A DNA stretch of 64,000 nucleotides, from contig CAZLLE010000103.1 in assembly GCA_964560425.1 (NCBI GenBank), positions 21,025 to 85,024 on the forward strand, given 5' to 3'. Positions 36,723-57,649 of the stretch are shown here, piece after piece. The notes under the pieces were generated by a model. The model did not search any database, was not told the origin of the DNA, and saw only the letters and a program-made list of their open reading frames with translations. This stretch comes from an uncultured Campylobacterales bacterium. Its GTDB lineage: Bacteria > Campylobacterota > Campylobacteria > Campylobacterales > QNZT01. The stretch's first letter is position 1; each line of letters opens with the position of its first letter. The translations under genes were made by a program, and so were the position numbers.

Positions 36723-37916
36723 AACAACCCTAAATCCAATATTATAATTGGAACTTTGAGGAGTTCTCCAGTCACGGTTTGAAGATTGAAGCCACTTTGC
36801 ATAACCATACCAACTACCACCACGAAGAACTTTATATGATTGATTTATATCATACCAATCTTCACACCACTCTCTTACATTTCCATGCATATCATATAGC
36901 CCCCATGGATTTGGTTTTTTTTCTCCAACTAATTGTGTTTTTTTGCCTGAGTTTTTTTCATACCATGCATAATGAGTAGCTAATTTATCATCATCTCCAA
37001 AACTATATTTACTTTTTGTTCCAGCACGACATGCATATTCCCACTCTTTTTCAGTAGGTAGTCGATATTTTTTACCCATTTTTTTACTCAAATACTCAGT
37101 ATATGCTCTCGCATCATACCAACTTACATATATTACAGGTCGTCTACCTCTTCCCCAACCCTCATCACGAGGCAGTTGTCTATTGGTATCTTTACAAAAT
37201 ATATCATACTCATCAAAAGTCACTTGATATCTACTCATACAAAAATCATAATTTATAAATTTGCTTCTTGGAATCTGTACAAAATCTTTTTCATGTGGTA
37301 ATTTTTGATTGGAGTTTCTCTTTGTTGAGTGAAAAATAGTAAAAAGCTCTCTAATGAATGTTTTATTTTTCCTAATATTTGGTGATAATATAGATAGATC
37401 AGGATAGCGAAGTAGTAATCTTTTTTTCTCTAATTTACCCATAGATAGATAACTTTTAGGATAGAGACTATATCCAGAACATCGTAGATTATAGATATAT
37501 AACTTTTTTTCAAAAACTGTTATAGATGCAAAAAGGGGATATTTTCTGGAGTTGTTATATAAACTTTGGGCTTTACTTCTTGGTACTTCTACAAGCCATT
37601 TTTCATCTATGATATTACTATTTTCTATCTTTTCATCAAATATATTAAACAGTATAGCATCTGCAATAAAGTATGACTCTTCCGCATCATACTCTAAAAG
37701 TTCAATATAACCAATTTCAATGGGATCTAAATTATGTAGTCTATCTCTATACTCATCAAATGTTTCAAACATTGTCTTATCAAGTGTTTGAAGCTCTAAT
37801 TTTTCTTCATCTTTCTCTAATCGTTTCAAACATTCATGACAAAGTTTTTTATCTTCATCATAAAGGAAAGGAGGAACATCCTCCTCTTTACACATCTTAC
37901 AGATATGTCCCCTCAT
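36705..37916 (-). CDS. FGE-sulfatase (SUMF1/C-lectin-fold) domain protein with an N-terminal CxxC..CxxC module
   Basis: PVIYVSWYDA, RLPTEKEWEYACRAG, NPWGLYDMHGNVREW, RGGSW, NIGFR; N-terminal CKMC-x14-CHEC. Confidence 0.85.
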   Translation of the reverse strand: MRGHICKMCKEEDVPPFLYDEDKKLCHECLKRLEKDEEKLELQTLDKTMFETFDEYRDRLHNLDPIEIGYIELLEYDAEESYFIADAILFNIFDEKIENSNIIDEKWLVEVPRSKAQSLYNNSRKYPLFASITVFEKKLYIYNLRCSGYSLYPKSYLSMGKLEKKRLLLRYPDLSILSPNIRKNKTFIRELFTIFHSTKRNSNQKLPHEKDFVQIPRSKFINYDFCMSRYQVTFDEYDIFCKDTNRQLPRDEGWGRGRRPVIYVSWYDARAYTEYLSKKMGKKYRLPTEKEWEYACRAGTKSKYSFGDDDKLATHYAWYEKNSGKKTQLVGEKKPNPWGLYDMHGNVREWCEDWYDINQSYKVLRGGSWYGYAKWLQSSNRDWRTPQSSNYNIGFRVVLEGTL

Positions 37917-50286: not shown

Positions 50287-50856
50287 TTGATATATATCAT
50301 TACAGCCCTAAAAGTGGAGGCAACTCCACTAATAGTGCATCTAAACCTAGAGAAAATCAGATCCAAACCTTTTGAAATCTACTCAAATCAAAATATAATC
50401 CTCATTATTTCAGGTATAGGAAATATAAATATAGCAATAGCAACCACCTACCTTTTATCAACATTTCAAACAGCTAAAAGTGATAAGATATATAATATAG
50501 GAATATGTGGAAGTAAATCTACCAATAATGATATTGGAGAACTTTATACCATCAAAAAGATAGTAAATCAATCAACAAACAAAGTAGTACACATAACCAA
50601 CAATTCAGATACAAGAGAGGAAAGTATTACTACTACTCCAATTGCTCAAAATAGTTCTCATAAAATCAAAACCAATCTAGTAGATATGGAGAGTTTTGGA
50701 TTTTATTCTAGTGCAAAACTATTTTTACCAAAAGAGAGTATCATGATAATCAAGATAGTTTCTGATAAAGTTGATGATACTATTTTGGGTAAAAATATAA
50801 TATACTCTCTACTAGAGAATAAGATAGAGGAGATAAAATCATTAATGCTCTTATAA
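50287..50856 (+). CDS. Nucleoside phosphorylase / MTA-SAH nucleosidase-like protein (PNP_UDP_1 fold)
   Basis: ITALKVEA, ISGIG, NIGICG, LVDMES, KIVSD. Confidence 0.78.
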   Translation: MIYIITALKVEATPLIVHLNLEKIRSKPFEIYSNQNIILIISGIGNINIAIATTYLLSTFQTAKSDKIYNIGICGSKSTNNDIGELYTIKKIVNQSTNKVVHITNNSDTREESITTTPIAQNSSHKIKTNLVDMESFGFYSSAKLFLPKESIMIIKIVSDKVDDTILGKNIIYSLLENKIEEIKSLMLL

Positions 50857-51524
50857 CTGGTGCATCTAGTGGAATAGGATTAGAGTGTGTCAAAAAGCTT
50901 ATTAAGTTAAATTATAAAGTTTATGGAGTTGCAAGAGATTTTACAAAATGTAAATTTTCAGATCCAAATTTTATAAAAGTTGAATCCAATCTAACAGTAA
51001 ATCAAGAGTTTCCACAAATTAAAGATATCTCCATCTTAATAAACTGTGCAGGTGTCGGATATTTTGAACCTCATGAAGAGCTAAGTATAAAACAGATCAA
51101 AGAGATGATCAATCTAAACCTCACTGCTCCACTACTACTAAGTAGATACTTTTTGAGAGATCTCAAAAAAAATAGCGGATATATTTTCAATATCAACTCA
51201 ATTTCAGGAGTTGAACCAGCACCATTTGGAGCAGTTTATGGAGCAACAAAAGCAGGACTCAAACACTTTAGCACTTCACTATTCAAAGAGGCAAGAAAAA
51301 GTGGATTAAAAGTAATTAATATCAATCCAGATATTACAAAAACTCCATTTTTTGATAATCTACATTTTAAAGAGTCTAATAATCCATTGAGCTACATAGC
51401 ACCTCAAGATATAGCACAAATAATTGAAGATATCCTATCACTAAGAGAAGGTACTGTTATTACAGACATCACAATCCAACCACAAAAATTTCAGATACAA
51501 AAGAAAAAAAAAATAACTCTATAA
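50838..51524 (+). CDS. Short-chain dehydrogenase/reductase; N-terminus lacks a canonical start (ATC 50838 or ATT 50841)
   Basis: Frame is open from 50823: ALITGASSGIG, LINCAGVG, YGATK. In-frame TAA at 50820; the first ATG (51105) lies after the Rossmann fold. Confidence 0.82.
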   Translation: MINALITGASSGIGLECVKKLIKLNYKVYGVARDFTKCKFSDPNFIKVESNLTVNQEFPQIKDISILINCAGVGYFEPHEELSIKQIKEMINLNLTAPLLLSRYFLRDLKKNSGYIFNINSISGVEPAPFGAVYGATKAGLKHFSTSLFKEARKSGLKVININPDITKTPFFDNLHFKESNNPLSYIAPQDIAQIIEDILSLREGTVITDITIQPQKFQIQKKKKITL

Positions 51525-51577
51525 CCATTATTGGATACAATACCATCTAAAAATTTTTCCTAGAAAGTCTACTTAAC

Positions 51578-53647
51578 ATGAAAATCATAGATAATATAAA
51601 ACTAACAGGTGATAACCTAGAACAAAAAAGAGAAGAGATTAGAGACTATTTTATAAATAGTTGGGAAGCTTATGAAAAACTTTTTGAAATTATCAAAGAT
51701 GAACGGGCTTATTATCAAAAAGCAAACAATCTTAGACACCCTATTATCTTCTATTTTGGACATACTGCTACATTTTTTATCAATAAACTCATATTAGCCA
51801 AAATCATAGACAAGAGAGTTAATCCAAAATTGGAATCTATTTTTGCTGTTGGTGTTGATGAGATGAGTTGGGATGATTTAGATGAAAAAAACTACGATTG
51901 GGCTTCACTTCAAGAGACAAAAGAGTATCGAAATCTTGTCAAAAATAGAATACTTAATCTCATAGATAATTTACCACTTACACTACCAATATCTTGGGAT
52001 TCTCCATTTTGGGTTATATTAATGGGAATAGAACATGAGAAAATACATTTAGAGACATCTTCTGTGCTTATTAGAGAGTTACCTATAGAATTTATTACAA
52101 AATCATCTGTTTGGAAAATAGATAAAGAGGATAAAATAGTACCAAAAAATAAACTAATCCCTATCAAAGAGGGAGAAGTAAAACAAAACAAAACAAAAAA
52201 TAGTGATTATTATGGTTGGGACAATGAATATGGCACTCATGAAGCCTCTGTTTCAAACTTTAAAGCTTCTAAATTTTTGGTAAGCAATAGTGAATTTCTA
52301 GAGTTTGTAAAAGATGGAGGATATCAAACAGATAGATATTGGGAAGAGGAAGGAAGAGAGTGGAAAAACTACACAAAAGTAACCCATCCAAAATTTTGGA
52401 TCAAGGAAGGAAATGAGTATAAATTAAGAGATATTGACCAAATTATCCCCCTACTTCTTAGTCATCCTGTAGAAGTCAACTATCATGAAGCCAAAGCATA
52501 TTGTAATTGGCTTTCTCAGAAATTGGATAAAAATTTACGACTTCCTACTGAAGATGAGTGGTATAGACTAATTCAAACCAATGAGACAAAAGAAGCAAAT
52601 ATAAATTTGAAAAATCTATCTACAACACCTATAGATAAATTTCCTCATGGAGAATTTTATGATTTGAGAGGAAATGTATGGCAATGGACTCAAACAGCTA
52701 TATACCCTTATGAGGGGTTTGAAGTTCACCCAATTTATGATGATTTTACAACTCCAACATTTGATACCAAACACAACCTCATAAAAGGAGGCTCTTTTAT
52801 AAGTACAGGAAATGAGATCTTATTATCAGCAAGATACGCCTTTAGAAGACACTTCTATCAACATGCAGGTTTTAGATATGTAGAGAGTGATTATCAAGAA
52901 GAGAGTAAAAATAATATTTATGAGAGTGACTCTCTTGTATCTCAATATATAGAGTTTGGCTGGGGAAAGGAGTATTTTGGAGTAGCAAATTATCCATCTA
53001 CTTGTGCATCTTTGGCACTATCTTTCATGAAAGATAGACCCAAAAAAAGAGCTTTAGATATTGGATGTGCTATTGGTAGAAGTAGTTTTGAATTAGCAAG
53101 AGAATTTGAAGAGGTAACAGGATTAGATTTTACTGCTCGTTTTATATCTATGGCAGATAAGATGAAAAGTGATAAAAAGCTAAATTTTACAACCACTATA
53201 GAGGGTGATTTAGTAGAGTATAAAAGCACTTATTTAAAAGATTTTGATCTAGAAAAAGAGGCTCAAAAAGTAGAATTTTGGCAAGGAGATGCTTGTAATC
53301 TCAAACCAGTTTATAAAGATTATGATCTTATCTTTGCAGGAAATTTAATAGATAGATTATATAATCCAAAACACTTTTTAGACGATATTTCACACAGATT
53401 AAATAGTGGAGGACTCTTTATTATGACTAGCCCATACACATGGCTAGAAGAGTTTACTCCTAAAGAGGAATGGATTGGAGGCTATAAAAAAGATGGTGAA
53501 AATTTTACAACGCTAGATGGATTAAAGATAATTTTGGATAAAGACTTTAAATTAGTAGAGAGTAGAGATATACCTTTTGTAATTAGAGAAACAAAAAGAA
53601 AATATCAACATACTATTGCACAAATGAGCGTATGGGAGAAGAGATGA
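51578..53647 (+). CDS. ovoA: OvoA, 5-histidylcysteine sulfoxide synthase fused to a methyltransferase (ovothiol biosynthesis)
   Basis: DinB-like LRHPIIFYFGHTATFF, H-x3-H-x-E (HEKIHLE), FGE domain (GNVWQWT, HPIYDDF, FRRHFYQHAGFR), SAM methyltransferase domain (LDIGCAIGR). Confidence 0.9.
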   Translation: MKIIDNIKLTGDNLEQKREEIRDYFINSWEAYEKLFEIIKDERAYYQKANNLRHPIIFYFGHTATFFINKLILAKIIDKRVNPKLESIFAVGVDEMSWDDLDEKNYDWASLQETKEYRNLVKNRILNLIDNLPLTLPISWDSPFWVILMGIEHEKIHLETSSVLIRELPIEFITKSSVWKIDKEDKIVPKNKLIPIKEGEVKQNKTKNSDYYGWDNEYGTHEASVSNFKASKFLVSNSEFLEFVKDGGYQTDRYWEEEGREWKNYTKVTHPKFWIKEGNEYKLRDIDQIIPLLLSHPVEVNYHEAKAYCNWLSQKLDKNLRLPTEDEWYRLIQTNETKEANINLKNLSTTPIDKFPHGEFYDLRGNVWQWTQTAIYPYEGFEVHPIYDDFTTPTFDTKHNLIKGGSFISTGNEILLSARYAFRRHFYQHAGFRYVESDYQEESKNNIYESDSLVSQYIEFGWGKEYFGVANYPSTCASLALSFMKDRPKKRALDIGCAIGRSSFELAREFEEVTGLDFTARFISMADKMKSDKKLNFTTTIEGDLVEYKSTYLKDFDLEKEAQKVEFWQGDACNLKPVYKDYDLIFAGNLIDRLYNPKHFLDDISHRLNSGGLFIMTSPYTWLEEFTPKEEWIGGYKKDGENFTTLDGLKIILDKDFKLVESRDIPFVIRETKRKYQHTIAQMSVWEKR

Positions 53648-54855
53648 ACTTTGATCTAATTATACCCAGAGAGGGATCACATTGTGAAAAATTTGATTCA
53701 AAAGTTGAAAAATTTGGAACAAACGATCTATTTCCACTATGGGTGGCAGATATGGATTTTGCCACTTCAAAAGCTATTCAAGAAGCTATTACAAAGAGAA
53801 TAAAACATCCAATTTATGGATATACATCTTTTTACGAATTATACTTTGCAGCTATAAAATATTGGATGAACAAACAACATCAATGGCAAATATCAAATAG
53901 AGATATCATTCCAATCAATGGAATCGTTCCAGCACTTAATCTAGCAGTAGAGCAGTTCACAAAAAAAGGTGATGGAGTTCTTATTCAAACACCAATCTAT
54001 CCGCCATTTATGAATGCAATCAAACACCAAAGCCGAGAGATATTAGAGAATCGACTTCAACTAATAAATGGAAGATATGAGATAGATTTTGTCGATTTTA
54101 GAGAGAAAATAAAAAGAGCAAAACTTTTTCTATTTTGCTCACCACACAATCCAACAGGAAGAGTATGGCAAAAAGATGAACTAGAGGAGATTGCAAAAAT
54201 ATGCTATGACTACAAAGTAACTATAATAAGTGATGAAGTTCATGCTGATCTAGTATATAGAGGACATAAACATACCCCTATTGCTATGTTGGAAAAAGCA
54301 AAAGATATTACAATCACACTAAATGCACCATCCAAAACATTCAATGTTGCAGGAGTTGTAAATGCTTATGCAATAGCACAAAATAGCTCACTAAAGAGAA
54401 GATTTGAGGCAATTTTTACAAAATATGCACTAATAAATCCAAATCCATTCTCAATAGAGATTACTATAGCAGCATATCGACAGAGTGGTCTTTGGCTAGA
54501 TCAACTACAAAACTACCTAGAAGGGAACCTAAACTATCTCCTTCATCAACTAGAACAGACCCCAAAAATAAAACCAATCAAAGGGGAAGCTACATTTTTA
54601 CTATGGCTAGATTGTAGAGATCTAAATCTAAATGACCATACTATGTCTAATTGGTTTATAAAAGAGGCAAAATTGGGACTAAATAGTGGTATTAGTTTTG
54701 GAGCTATTGGATCTGGATTTATGAGAATTAATTTTGCACTTCCTCGCATTGTATTAAAATTAGCAATCAAAAATCTAAAAGATGCTTATGAAAAAAGGGA
54801 AAAAACACTTATAGAAAAAAGTATTGAGTTTCCATTCCTCAAGAAAGCTCCTTAG
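53644..54855 (+). CDS. MalY/PatB-family PLP-dependent C-S lyase (cystathionine beta-lyase-like)
   Basis: PLWVADMDF, CSPHNPTG, SDEVHADL, APSKTFN (PLP Lys), FMRINFA; ATGA overlap with ovoA. Confidence 0.9.
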   Translation: MNFDLIIPREGSHCEKFDSKVEKFGTNDLFPLWVADMDFATSKAIQEAITKRIKHPIYGYTSFYELYFAAIKYWMNKQHQWQISNRDIIPINGIVPALNLAVEQFTKKGDGVLIQTPIYPPFMNAIKHQSREILENRLQLINGRYEIDFVDFREKIKRAKLFLFCSPHNPTGRVWQKDELEEIAKICYDYKVTIISDEVHADLVYRGHKHTPIAMLEKAKDITITLNAPSKTFNVAGVVNAYAIAQNSSLKRRFEAIFTKYALINPNPFSIEITIAAYRQSGLWLDQLQNYLEGNLNYLLHQLEQTPKIKPIKGEATFLLWLDCRDLNLNDHTMSNWFIKEAKLGLNSGISFGAIGSGFMRINFALPRIVLKLAIKNLKDAYEKREKTLIEKSIEFPFLKKAP

Positions 54856-57649
54856 CCAAAAATTTTCCCGTATAACTACCACTTTTTTTATAATGCTTTG
54901 CTAAATCATAAGGAGAACCAGTAGCAACTATTTTTCCTCCACCACTACCTCCTTCTGGTCCCATATCTATAATATAATCGGCATTTTTCACAATATCAAG
55001 ATTATGTTCAATTACCAATACACTATTACCAAGATCCGTTAAATGTTGCAAAACATTTACAAGCCTATCTACATCAGCAAAGTGTAACCCCGTAGTTGGT
55101 TCATCAAGAATATAGAGGGTATTTCCAGTATCTTTTTTACTTAGCTCTTTTGAAAGCTTAATCCTCTGAGCCTCTCCACCACTCAAAGTTGTGGCATTTT
55201 GTCCAAGAGTGATATATCCAAGTCCTACTTCATGAAGTGTATGTAGTTTTTGATAAATTTTTGGAATTGCTTTAAAAAACTCCAAAGCTTCATCTACATC
55301 CATGTGCAATACTTCAGAAATATTTTTACCACGATAAAATACCTCCAATGTTTGAGCATTATATCGTTTACCTTGACATGCATCGCATTTGACTTGAATA
55401 TCTGGCAAAAAATGCATTTCGATTTTTATCTCTCCATCACCTTGACACTTTTCACATCTTCCACCTTTGACATTAAAGCTAAACCTTCCGATTTTATAGC
55501 CCCTAATCTCTGCCTCTTTAGTTTTGGAAAAGAGTAATCTTATCTCATCCATAACACCAGTATAAGTAGCTGGATTACTTCTAGGAGTACGACCAATAGG
55601 ACTTTGATCAAGATATATCACTTTATCCAACTGCTCCAATCCAAGACACTCTACACCCTCCACTTTTTTTACTTTTCTAGCACGATTAAGAAGCTCTTTG
55701 GCAACAGGCATAAGAGTTTGTAAAATAAGTGAACTTTTACCACTTCCGCTAACACCAGTAATACAAACCAAATTTGCAAGAGGAATTTTTACACTAAGAT
55801 CTTCAAGATTATTAAGAGTAACGCCATTTACCTCTATCCACCTCTCCTGTTTTCTCCCTTTAAAATAATCAATTTTTTTACGCCCATATAGATAATCTGC
55901 TGTTAAAGTTTTAGCTTTTTTTAGCTCCTTTAAAACACCACTAAATACAACCTCACCCCCAAATTTACCAGCCTTAGGACCAATATCTATAATAAAATCA
56001 GCAGATTCAATAGTCTCTTTATCATGCTCTACAACTATTACGCTATTGCCTCTTTTTTGTAGATTTTTCAAAGTACGAATAAGTCTAAGTGTATCTCTCT
56101 CATGAAGCCCAATGCTAGGCTCATCTAATACATACATTACACCCGTAAGTCCACTTCCAATTTGTGAAGATATACGAATTCTTTGAGCCTCTCCTCCACT
56201 AATTGTTCTAGCATCTCTCCCCAAAGATATATAACCAAGTCCTACATCTACTAGAAAAAATAGTCTCTCTTGAAGCTCTTTTAAAATTGGTGCAGCAATA
56301 ATAGATTGTTGTCTATTTAGGTGAGAAAAGTTTTTTTCATCTATATAAAACTGATAACTTTTATCAATTGGCATATCCAAAATAGAGGCTATACCCTCAT
56401 CAGCAAATTTTACAGCTAAACTCTCTAGTTTAAGACGATGTCCACCACAACTATCACACACCTTTTCCGTCATATATTCGCCAAGTTCTCGCTCATCTTT
56501 GATCATATCATAAGCAATTTTGACAACACCTTCAAACTTTCTTTTGAGATTATGGCGTTTCCATGTAAACTCTGCAAACTCTACTCCACCATGCAAAACC
56601 GCTTTTTTTTGATGTGATTGTAGATCTTCAAATGGGATAGTTGTATCAATTTTTGAGGCATCACAAAAAGCCTTTAAAAATTTTGCATAATACCCCTTGT
56701 TAAAGCCATAAAAGAGTTTAACAGCTCCATTATCAATACTTAAGTGTTCATCAATCACTTTACGCATATCAATTACATATCTAATGCCCAAACCATCACA
56801 AACAGGACATGCACCTTTTGGAGAATTAAATGAAAAAGAGAGTGGTTCAAGTGGATCAAAAGAGATCTTACAATCAAAACATGCAAAGTGTTCACTATAG
56901 TGAATATGTTCACTCTCTAAATTAACCTCTTCATGATTTAATATATCTATCTCCAACTCACCATAACTCTCCTTGAGAGCTTTCTCTACATCTTCTGCAA
57001 CTCTTTGACGATTATCCTCTTTTATAACAACCCTATCAACTACCAATTTGATTGTATGTTTTTTAGTTTTACTAAGCTCAATTTCATCATCAAGCCTCAC
57101 CATAACACCATCAATCATAGCTCGTACATAACCCTTTTGTCTCAATGACTCTATCAAATCATGAAAGCTTCCCTTTTTATCACGAATAAGGGGAGCTAAT
57201 AGTACTGCTTTTGTACCATTTGGAAGTTTTTGAACTTGTTTAATAATATCAGCCGCACTCATTTCAGAGATAGGTTTTCCACATTTATGACAATGTTGTT
57301 TTCCTACTCTTGCATATAAAAGTCGAAGATAGTCATAAATTTCGGTAATTGTTCCAACAGTAGAGCGTGGATTTTTGGAAGTTGTCTTTTGATCTATGGC
57401 AATAGCAGGAGTAAGCCCCTCAATCTTATCAATATCAGGCTTACCGATACGATCCAAAAACTGTCTAGCATAAGAGGATAAAGACTCTATATAACGCCTC
57501 TGCCCCTCTGCATAGAGAGTATCAAATGCCAATGTACTTTTACCACTGCCACTAAGACCTGTAATAACAACTAACTCATTTTTGGGAATCTCAATATTTA
57601 TCGATTTTAGATTATTTTCTCTAGCCCCATAAACTTTGATTTTATCCAT
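54839..57649 (-). CDS. uvrA: Excinuclease ABC subunit A
   Basis: GLSGSGKS, YAEGQRRY, SFNSPKGAC, GVSGSGKS, LSGGEAQR, LDEPTTGLH. Confidence 0.98.
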   Translation of the reverse strand: MDKIKVYGARENNLKSINIEIPKNELVVITGLSGSGKSTLAFDTLYAEGQRRYIESLSSYARQFLDRIGKPDIDKIEGLTPAIAIDQKTTSKNPRSTVGTITEIYDYLRLLYARVGKQHCHKCGKPISEMSAADIIKQVQKLPNGTKAVLLAPLIRDKKGSFHDLIESLRQKGYVRAMIDGVMVRLDDEIELSKTKKHTIKLVVDRVVIKEDNRQRVAEDVEKALKESYGELEIDILNHEEVNLESEHIHYSEHFACFDCKISFDPLEPLSFSFNSPKGACPVCDGLGIRYVIDMRKVIDEHLSIDNGAVKLFYGFNKGYYAKFLKAFCDASKIDTTIPFEDLQSHQKKAVLHGGVEFAEFTWKRHNLKRKFEGVVKIAYDMIKDERELGEYMTEKVCDSCGGHRLKLESLAVKFADEGIASILDMPIDKSYQFYIDEKNFSHLNRQQSIIAAPILKELQERLFFLVDVGLGYISLGRDARTISGGEAQRIRISSQIGSGLTGVMYVLDEPSIGLHERDTLRLIRTLKNLQKRGNSVIVVEHDKETIESADFIIDIGPKAGKFGGEVVFSGVLKELKKAKTLTADYLYGRKKIDYFKGRKQERWIEVNGVTLNNLEDLSVKIPLANLVCITGVSGSGKSSLILQTLMPVAKELLNRARKVKKVEGVECLGLEQLDKVIYLDQSPIGRTPRSNPATYTGVMDEIRLLFSKTKEAEIRGYKIGRFSFNVKGGRCEKCQGDGEIKIEMHFLPDIQVKCDACQGKRYNAQTLEVFYRGKNISEVLHMDVDEALEFFKAIPKIYQKLHTLHEVGLGYITLGQNATTLSGGEAQRIKLSKELSKKDTGNTLYILDEPTTGLHFADVDRLVNVLQHLTDLGNSVLVIEHNLDIVKNADYIIDMGPEGGSGGGKIVATGSPYDLAKHYKKSGSYTGKFLAKELS

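Follow-up and report, generated by a model that had tools for sequence, protein, structure and literature searches.

In ergothioneine synthesis the C-S lyases EgtE and Egt2 use PLP to cleave a histidyl-cysteine sulfoxide, a reaction of the kind ascribed to OvoB. PatB of B. subtilis, the C. difficile protein 4DGT and MalY of E. coli have cystathionine, cystine or conjugates of cysteine as their substrates. For ovothiol, Erwinia has provided the sole characterised pathway (PMC8943887), and the lyase of Erwinia tasmaniensis, EtOvoB, has been identified as PDB entry 5Z0Q (PMC8433421). The adjacency of ovoA and ovoB was reported in 2021 and 2022 (PMC8433421; PMC8943887), with pairs described in Nitrosospira, Acidithiobacillus, Alteromonas and Pseudoalteromonas (PMC8433421) and an adjacent OvoB predicted in Methyloversatilis thermotolerans (OvoAMtht/OvoBMtht; PMC8943887). 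A 2026 survey equates the CDD family 'MalY' with OvoB, tabulates it among the neighbours known for these synthases, and files EgtE under the CsdA-type enzymes (PMC13674229, Table 1). On the synthase side, OvoATh2 from Hydrogenimonas thermophila (PDB 8KHQ) has been both crystallised and assayed. Here these systems are compared with an ovoA locus from an uncultured Campylobacterales bacterium, contained in a 64,000-nucleotide stretch of DNA that was analysed as a whole (the window).

The ovoA gene and its junction with the lyase gene

The locus consists of ovoA and a lyase gene on the same strand, with the following features:

51578-53647, plus strand: ovoA, 689 aa, with DinB_2, FGE-sulfatase and methyltransferase domains
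53635-53638, plus strand: GGAG, a Shine-Dalgarno-like motif for the lyase, read from the sequence, in Trp-Glu codons of the ovoA C-terminus
53644-53647, plus strand: ATGA start/stop overlap, a putative translational-coupling junction, read from the sequence
53644-54855, plus strand: ovoB-like gene for a predicted PLP-dependent C-S beta-lyase of the PatB/MalY family, 403 aa
54839-54855, no strand assigned: 17-bp overlap of the lyase and uvrA 3' ends, marking the end of the operon (open reading frame list and UvrA domains)

The first gene is identified by model matches as ovoA, predicted to encode a 5-histidylcysteine sulfoxide synthase fused to a C-terminal 5-thiohistidine N-methyltransferase. 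Its product passes the equivalog models for both the N-terminal sulfoxide synthase (TIGR04344, 662.9 bits, cut-off 400) and the C-terminal N-methyltransferase (TIGR04345, 338 bits, cut-off 170) and stays under the cut-offs of the models for EgtB and SenA. In the control genomes of E. coli and B. subtilis nothing scored above the cut-off of the OvoA model, so that these hosts of MalY and PatB carry no ovoA. Among solved structures the protein matches 8KHQ with an E-value of 6.6e-289 and OvoM (9bxl) with 1.4e-81, with H62, H153 and H157 aligning with the OvoATh2 metal ligands H71, H162 and H166, and Y387, Y59 and R53 with Y406, Y68 and R62 (residue list from PMC10696552). The metal-site histidines and the active-site Tyr and Arg residues are invariant in our OvoA alignment. 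An enzyme for the selenium analogue was considered and rejected, as the match to OvsA reached only E 2.5e-26, the SenA score lay below its cut-off and the OvoA models were passed.

The junction reads GGGAGAAGAG-ATGA, such that the lyase ATG (53644-53646) overlaps the ovoA TGA (53645-53647), with the GGAG motif 5 nt upstream of the ATG and within the final ovoA codons. W686 of OvoA is invariant in the same alignment, and many proteobacterial loci also have a GGAG ahead of their NTGA junction. An alternative in-frame ATG at 53632 would yield a lyase of 407 aa instead of 403, but the ATGA start is preferred because the first residues of the lyase and of B. subtilis PatB then align with each other and because relatives share the NTGA start. 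This layout is consistent with translational coupling of the lyase to ovoA through the ATGA overlap, in which the ribosome-binding site would lie in the last ovoA codons. The sequence-only reading had described a gene for a three-domain OvoA that overlaps at ATGA with the downstream gene of a MalY-type PLP enzyme, and the domain and model scores together with the junction confirm that description.

Downstream, uvrA (54839-57649, minus strand) is convergent with the lyase gene. A larger operon including the upstream nucleosidase-like and SDR genes was rejected, since a tblastn search of 80 loci found neither gene at a distance of up to 6 kb from ovoA, indicating that the conserved unit is the ovoA-lyase pair. 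A scan of positions 50800-55300 for promoters and terminators gave counts no higher than in shuffled sequence with no signal standing out, an observation that was counted against an operon.

The lyase and its relation to Erwinia OvoB

The second protein passes the PatB family C-S lyase model TIGR04350 at 478.5 bits (cut-off 340) with an alignment that spans model positions 1-383 of 384, and is matched over nearly its full length by 4dgt (2e-98), PatB (6qp3, 4e-89) and MalY (1d2f, 4e-71). EtOvoB (5Z0Q) is matched at E 7.5e-58, with query residues 2-379 on chain residues 12-382, and ranks 15th among the PDB matches, the best being 4dgt and PatB. That the lyase stands closer to PatB-type enzymes of the generic kind (4dgt, 6qp3) than to EtOvoB was also entered against the operon reading.

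It had been proposed from the sequence alone that the characterised OvoB of Erwinia is a member of another PLP subfamily, making the lyase in the window a non-orthologous replacement for it. The first part is wrong, given the full-length match to 5Z0Q and the equation of MalY with OvoB (PMC13674229). A replacement drawn from another PLP subfamily is therefore highly improbable, being refuted at the family level, where nothing speaks for it; the contrast that the author had in mind may be with EgtE, an enzyme of the CsdA type.

The PLP lysine of the lyase is K231, and K231, Y60, Y119, N169, D197, H200 and R361 correspond to K240, Y66, Y125, N176, D204, H207 and R364 of EtOvoB, such that the PLP and catalytic residues given for that enzyme (PMC8433421) are all kept. 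The PLP and catalytic columns are invariant or nearly so among 104 family members, with one substitution each in the Y125 and N176 columns, both in other genomes. Of the three EtOvoB residues for which docking has led to a proposed role in selectivity (S352, D356 and R364), R364 is retained as R361, while S352 and D356 are replaced by N347 and S351. The D356 column varies (P, H, G, A or D) inside the EtOvoB-like clade itself and is unusable as a signature. The N347/S351 replacement was likewise noted on the debit side of the operon reading.

The relationship was examined further in a quick maximum-likelihood tree of 104 lyases, with support from SH-aLRT only and many forks open, in which EtOvoB is represented by proxies, namely Vreelandella and family f11 proteins whose best PDB match is 5Z0Q (2e-93 and 1e-108). 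The lyase from the window groups with ovoA-linked lyases of Hydrogenimonas, Sulfurovum and Halothiobacillus (SH-aLRT 95) and falls outside the EtOvoB-like clade (SH-aLRT 98, 12 sequences), so that orthology in the sense of membership of that clade was not found. The sampled members of the EtOvoB-like clade are all unlinked to ovoA, and the clade is nested inside the radiation of ovoA-linked lyases. The earlier description of the lyase as non-orthologous thus fails at the family level, the two enzymes sharing the PatB/MalY family, and is partly right at a finer one, in keeping with its position outside the EtOvoB-type clade and its best PDB matches to 4dgt and PatB.

These relationships leave some room for the view, which we hold to be possible while leaning against it, that the ovoA-linked lyases were recruited separately from Erwinia-type OvoB, the lyase in the window being a functional analogue and paralogue of EtOvoB, not its ortholog, from another clade of the same family. 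The separation of the two supported clades, one of them comprising unlinked genes only, speaks for such a history, as do the best PDB matches (5Z0Q in the EtOvoB-like clade, 4dgt or PatB in the linked lyases) and a 2-residue deletion before the conserved Arg that is common to the EtOvoB-like clade and absent from the lyase in the window. However, the nesting of the EtOvoB-like clade within the linked radiation is fitted equally well by a single ancestral OvoB with later loss of linkage, the tree has the open forks and proxy placement described above, and OvoB-like sequences had already been described as polyphyletic (PMC8433421).

Linkage of ovoA and the lyase across genomes

Within the class, ovoA is present in 52 of 301 genomes; all 52 carry a PatB-family gene somewhere in the genome, and in 33 of them the lyase lies directly downstream of ovoA on the same strand. 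The host's own Campylobacterales family is little sampled, with 2 genomes. Elsewhere, 53 of 74 assessable ovoA loci (Campylobacterota, Beta- and Gammaproteobacteria) are linked. The 4-base NTGA overlap occurs in 39 of the 73 linked pairs from other genomes, with loci in Nitrosospira, Nitrosomonas, Methylophaga and others showing the gene order and NTGA overlap of the window. Recurring at this frequency inside and outside the class, the ovoA-lyase linkage is far beyond chance, and the survey of ovoA-malY linkage suggested by the sequence-only reading shows that it is common.

A further 80 genomes of the class have a PatB-family gene and no ovoA, from which it follows that the family has other roles; this too was weighed against the operon reading. 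The lyase might therefore be mainly a housekeeping beta-lyase of broad specificity, acting like PatB/MalY on cystathionine or cysteine-S-conjugates and borrowed for ovothiol, which we judge unlikely. It is the sole PatB-family gene over the cut-off in its genome, OvoB has been termed a 'broad specificity beta-lyase' (PMC12631010) and unrelated lyases are able to complete thiohistidine pathways (PMC13674229), all of which would suit such a role. Against this, the translational coupling with ovoA has been kept in different phyla, and in three families (f8, f9 and f11) the lyase tracks ovoA exactly, the counts of the two genes being identical in each family (30 genomes with both, 10 with neither). 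Moreover, a separate PF01053 enzyme (428 bits) is encoded in the genome and could take part in the metabolism of methionine or cysteine.

Proposed pathway and comparison with known systems

The TIGR04350 score, the match to EtOvoB, the kept PLP and catalytic residues and the conserved linkage together make the lyase a candidate OvoB. The pair is very probably a two-gene ovothiol A operon, ovoA-ovoB, the substrates and product of which are inferred. In the predicted pathway the N-terminal non-haem-iron domain of OvoA would use O2 to join Cys to C5 of His, giving 5-histidylcysteine sulfoxide, from which the PatB/MalY-family PLP enzyme, as OvoB, would remove the cysteinyl moiety by beta-elimination to leave 5-thiohistidine. 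The C-terminal SAM methyltransferase of OvoA would then methylate the imidazole ring to form ovothiol A. This is in line with the earlier proposal of a self-contained unit of ovoA and a lyase, in which the lyase is the obvious candidate for cleavage of the sulfoxide. That proposal had also seen a tension between an O2-dependent OvoA and anaerobic sulfur reduction in the same cell. The tension is not real, since the genome carries haem-copper oxidase genes, two of the COX1 family, such that the O2 requirement poses no paradox, and ovoA occurs in 52 of the 301 genomes of the class.

It is doubtful, though conceivable, that lyases coupled to ovoA make up one or several lineages of dedicated OvoB, which arose within the PatB/MalY family separately from the Erwinia type, with the NTGA coupling and a ribosome-binding site drawn from invariant Trp-Glu codons reflecting matched synthesis, or an OvoA-OvoB association that passes on the sulfoxide. 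Among ovothiol C-S lyases EtOvoB alone has been assayed, and the Erwinia type that it represents is unlinked to ovoA in the sample, whereas the ovoA-coupled clades are widespread; in the literature searched no assayed ovoA-linked lyase or enzyme from the clade of this lyase was found, and this was also set against the operon reading.

The window very probably holds an ordinary ovoA-ovoB operon for making the antioxidant ovothiol; gene pairs arranged in this way are widespread and have been published before. A generic annotation as PatB/MalY lyase or aminotransferase would thus become probable OvoB, with little import beyond annotation, and production of ovothiol A is predicted in a sulfur-associated Campylobacterales lineage. 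For heterologous production of ovothiol, the linked pair would offer a compact cassette of two genes.

Compared with OvoATh2, the OvoA in the window has the same three-domain build, shares its metal ligands and its active-site Tyr and Arg residues, is about 60% identical to it as judged by eye on the printed alignment, and lacks a 9-residue insertion after residue 333. PatB of B. subtilis (6QP3), the C. difficile 4DGT protein and MalY of E. coli (1D2F) are among the nearest solved relatives of the lyase and share its NCBIfam subfamily, whereas EgtE and Egt2, being CsdA-type, belong to a different PLP subfamily. EtOvoB shares both the class I/II aminotransferase fold and the PatB/MalY family with the lyase, the two falling in separate clades of that family in the quick tree. 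In the published ovoA-ovoB pairs, the lyases of which are predictions only, ovoA likewise adjoins a class I/II aminotransferase-type C-S lyase, as it does in the window.

The ovoA-lyase pair and its junction

In the window ovoA is followed on the same strand by a PLP enzyme of the MalY type:

51578-53647, + strand: ovoA, 689 aa, with DinB_2, FGE-sulfatase and SAM-methyltransferase domains (ORF list and domain search)
53632 or 53644 to 54855, + strand: PatB family C-S lyase, 407 or 403 aa; TIGR04350 478 bits (cut-off 340)
53644-53647, + strand: ATGA overlap of the lyase ATG (53644) and the ovoA TGA (53645-53647), GGGAGAAGAG-ATGA

The ORFs, domains, TIGR scores and junction sequence bear out the sequence-only reading of two genes joined through an ATGA overlap. 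The ovoA ORF scores 663 and 338 bits against the N- and C-terminal NCBIfam OvoA equivalog models TIGR04344 and TIGR04345 (cut-offs 400 and 170), with the EgtB and SenA models scoring below their cut-offs. The crystallised and assayed OvoA of Hydrogenimonas thermophila (PDB 8KHQ) matched at E 6.6e-289, and the active-site residues named in the paper on that enzyme are identical in the alignment, the metal ligands H71, H162 and H166 corresponding to H62, H153 and H157, with Y406 at Y387, Y68 at Y59 and R62 at R53. The closest OvoA, 64% identical, is encoded in a metagenome bin of Campylobacterales. Far from ovoA, at 36849-37127 on the minus strand and inside a 404-aa open frame, the OvoA N-terminal model has another, low-scoring match of the FGE-sulfatase type (34 bits, model positions 300-385).

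A GGAG located 5 nt 5' of the lyase ATG is formed by the OvoA C-terminal Trp-Glu codons, and W686 is invariant across the OvoA protein alignment. We favour the ATGA start, not the in-frame ATG at 53632, since residue 1 of the lyase so read pairs with residue 1 of Bacillus subtilis PatB. At its 3' end the lyase gene shares 17 bp with the convergent uvrA. Upstream of ovoA lies a full-length SDR gene (50838-51524, + strand; Rossmann motif TGASSGIG from ~50850), called only as a 139-aa fragment from 51105 because it has no ATG, GTG or TTG start, its frame beginning ATC/ATT following AGGAG. The SDR gene overlaps the end of a nucleosidase-like ORF (50287-50856).

Linkage of ovoA and lyase genes across genomes

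Clustering of ovoA with an OvoB-like C-S lyase gene has been described in Nitrosospira, Acidithiobacillus, Alteromonas and Pseudoalteromonas (PMC8433421), with a predicted OvoB also adjacent in Methyloversatilis thermotolerans (PMC8943887). Among 301 surveyed genomes of the class Campylobacteria, ovoA was present in 52, being common in the sulfur-associated families and found in none of the 214 genomes searched of the large families f2 and f3. All 52 carry a PatB-family gene over the cut-off, and in 33 the lyase lies downstream on the same contig and strand, usually directly adjoining ovoA and no more than ~4 kb off. In families f8, f9 and f11 ovoA and PatB-family genes occur in equal numbers, 30 genomes having both and 10 having neither, a clean phyletic match.

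A non-random sample of 80 loci, the best matches to campylobacterial OvoA in a species-representative genome collection, included Sulfurovum, Hydrogenimonas, Nitrosomonas, Nitrosospira, Methylophaga, Sulfuricella, Gallionella, Halothiobacillus, Chromatiaceae and Cellvibrio. The lyase is immediately downstream in 53 of the 74 assessable loci, and 39 of 73 linked pairs share the 4-base NTGA overlap of the window, with start sites picked by a nearest-start heuristic. The nucleosidase-like and SDR genes were absent from all 80 loci, so that the conserved unit is the two-gene pair. The linkage survey that the sequence-only reading had called for therefore reveals nothing special to this genome, the arrangement being widespread and already published.

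Variant loci were also seen. In genus g42 (L054, G174:C2; L055, G231:C9) ovoA encodes the sulfoxide synthase domain only (~450-470 aa), with the lyase within a few bases and no methyltransferase domain in between; in genome G231 a TIGR04345 match (314 bits, 613-aa frame) lies apart, on a different contig, and a search of G174 found none. Four OvoA proteins of families f7 and f8 (L045, L048, L049, L056; 618-645 aa) have a shortened C-terminal domain, which in the two genomes searched (G049 with L045, G268 with L048) matches TIGR04345 only weakly and in part (46-62 bits) and could represent a degenerate methyltransferase or a variant one. The ovoA-bearing Dechloromonas-like genome G304 (L095) has only two PatB-family matches, both partial (208-216 bits; C50:12901-13497 and C51:6543-7142; model positions ~134-333) and one with in-frame stops, which may represent lyase pseudogenes or an assembly problem.

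Relationship of the lyase to the Erwinia OvoB

The proposal of an alternative OvoB depended on the OvoB of Erwinia tasmaniensis (EtOvoB; PDB 5Z0Q, PMC8433421) belonging to another PLP subfamily. This was mistaken, as 5Z0Q aligns with almost the whole of the window lyase (query 2-379 to chain 12-382, E 7.5e-58) and the CDD family "MalY" is entered as OvoB in Table 1 of PMC13674229, a study in which 4.4% of the sulfoxide and selenoxide synthase genes overall had "MalY" no further than 5 kb away. The same table gives EgtE as a CsdA-type enzyme, and the supposed difference in subfamily may, we suggest, trace to EgtE.

The cofactor and catalytic residues Y66, Y125, N176, D204, H207, K240 and R364 of EtOvoB (PMC8433421) are all kept, as Y60, Y119, N169, D197, H200, K231 and R361; these positions show little or no variation among 104 aligned PatB-family members and therefore mark the family rather than OvoB. 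The selectivity residues S352 and D356, proposed by docking, correspond to N347 and S351, and D356 is no signature since it varies even within the EtOvoB-like clade.

Within the shared PatB/MalY family, a distinction from the Erwinia type does hold at the level of clade. The top PDB relatives of the window lyase are a Clostridioides difficile protein (4DGT, 2e-98) and B. subtilis PatB (4e-89), with 5Z0Q ranking 15th, and a linked Methylophaga lyase is likewise nearer 4DGT (3e-102) than 5Z0Q (8e-77). By contrast, in ovoA-bearing Vreelandella and in family f11 the PatB-family genes that are not linked to ovoA have 5Z0Q as top match (2e-93 and 1e-108). In a quick ML tree (IQ-TREE, SH-aLRT support only) the window lyase groups with linked lyases of Hydrogenimonas, Sulfurovum and Halothiobacillus (support 95), while most proteobacterial linked lyases form a second clade (support 99). 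The 12 members of the EtOvoB-like clade (support 98) are unlinked genes only, spanning Proteobacteria and one Campylobacteria family (L058-L060, L064, L071 and L072 of f11; also L162, L166, L167 and L171-L173). This clade is nested among linked lyases, such that the tree fits either one ancestral OvoB with linkage lost later or, equally, several separate recruitments of lyases; OvoB-like sequences have already been termed polyphyletic (PMC8433421).

Proposed pathway and place among known systems

By analogy with the Erwinia and Hydrogenimonas enzymes, OvoA would couple cysteine oxidatively to C5 of histidine, the lyase would beta-eliminate the cysteinyl part to give 5-thiohistidine and the OvoA C-terminal domain would methylate this to ovothiol A. 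An O2-dependent OvoA had seemed at odds with a sulfur-reducing complex, yet the two are compatible because the genome encodes two COX1-family oxidases.

The 2.43-Mb genome has no PatB-family gene over the cut-off other than the window lyase. A role shared with housekeeping is possible; OvoB has been termed a broad-specificity beta-lyase (PMC12631010), and 80 genomes of the class carry PatB-family genes without ovoA. A dedicated role is plausible since sulfur amino-acid metabolism could be served by a separate PF01053 enzyme (428 bits). Unlike the Erwinia type, the ovoA-coupled clades had no assayed member in the literature searched.

Both genes belong to their respective families, with intact active sites and a conserved, coupled linkage. 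As an ovoA-ovoB arrangement the pair is ordinary and has been described before; the host is new, and belongs to a sparsely sampled family of Campylobacterales with two genomes in the sample.
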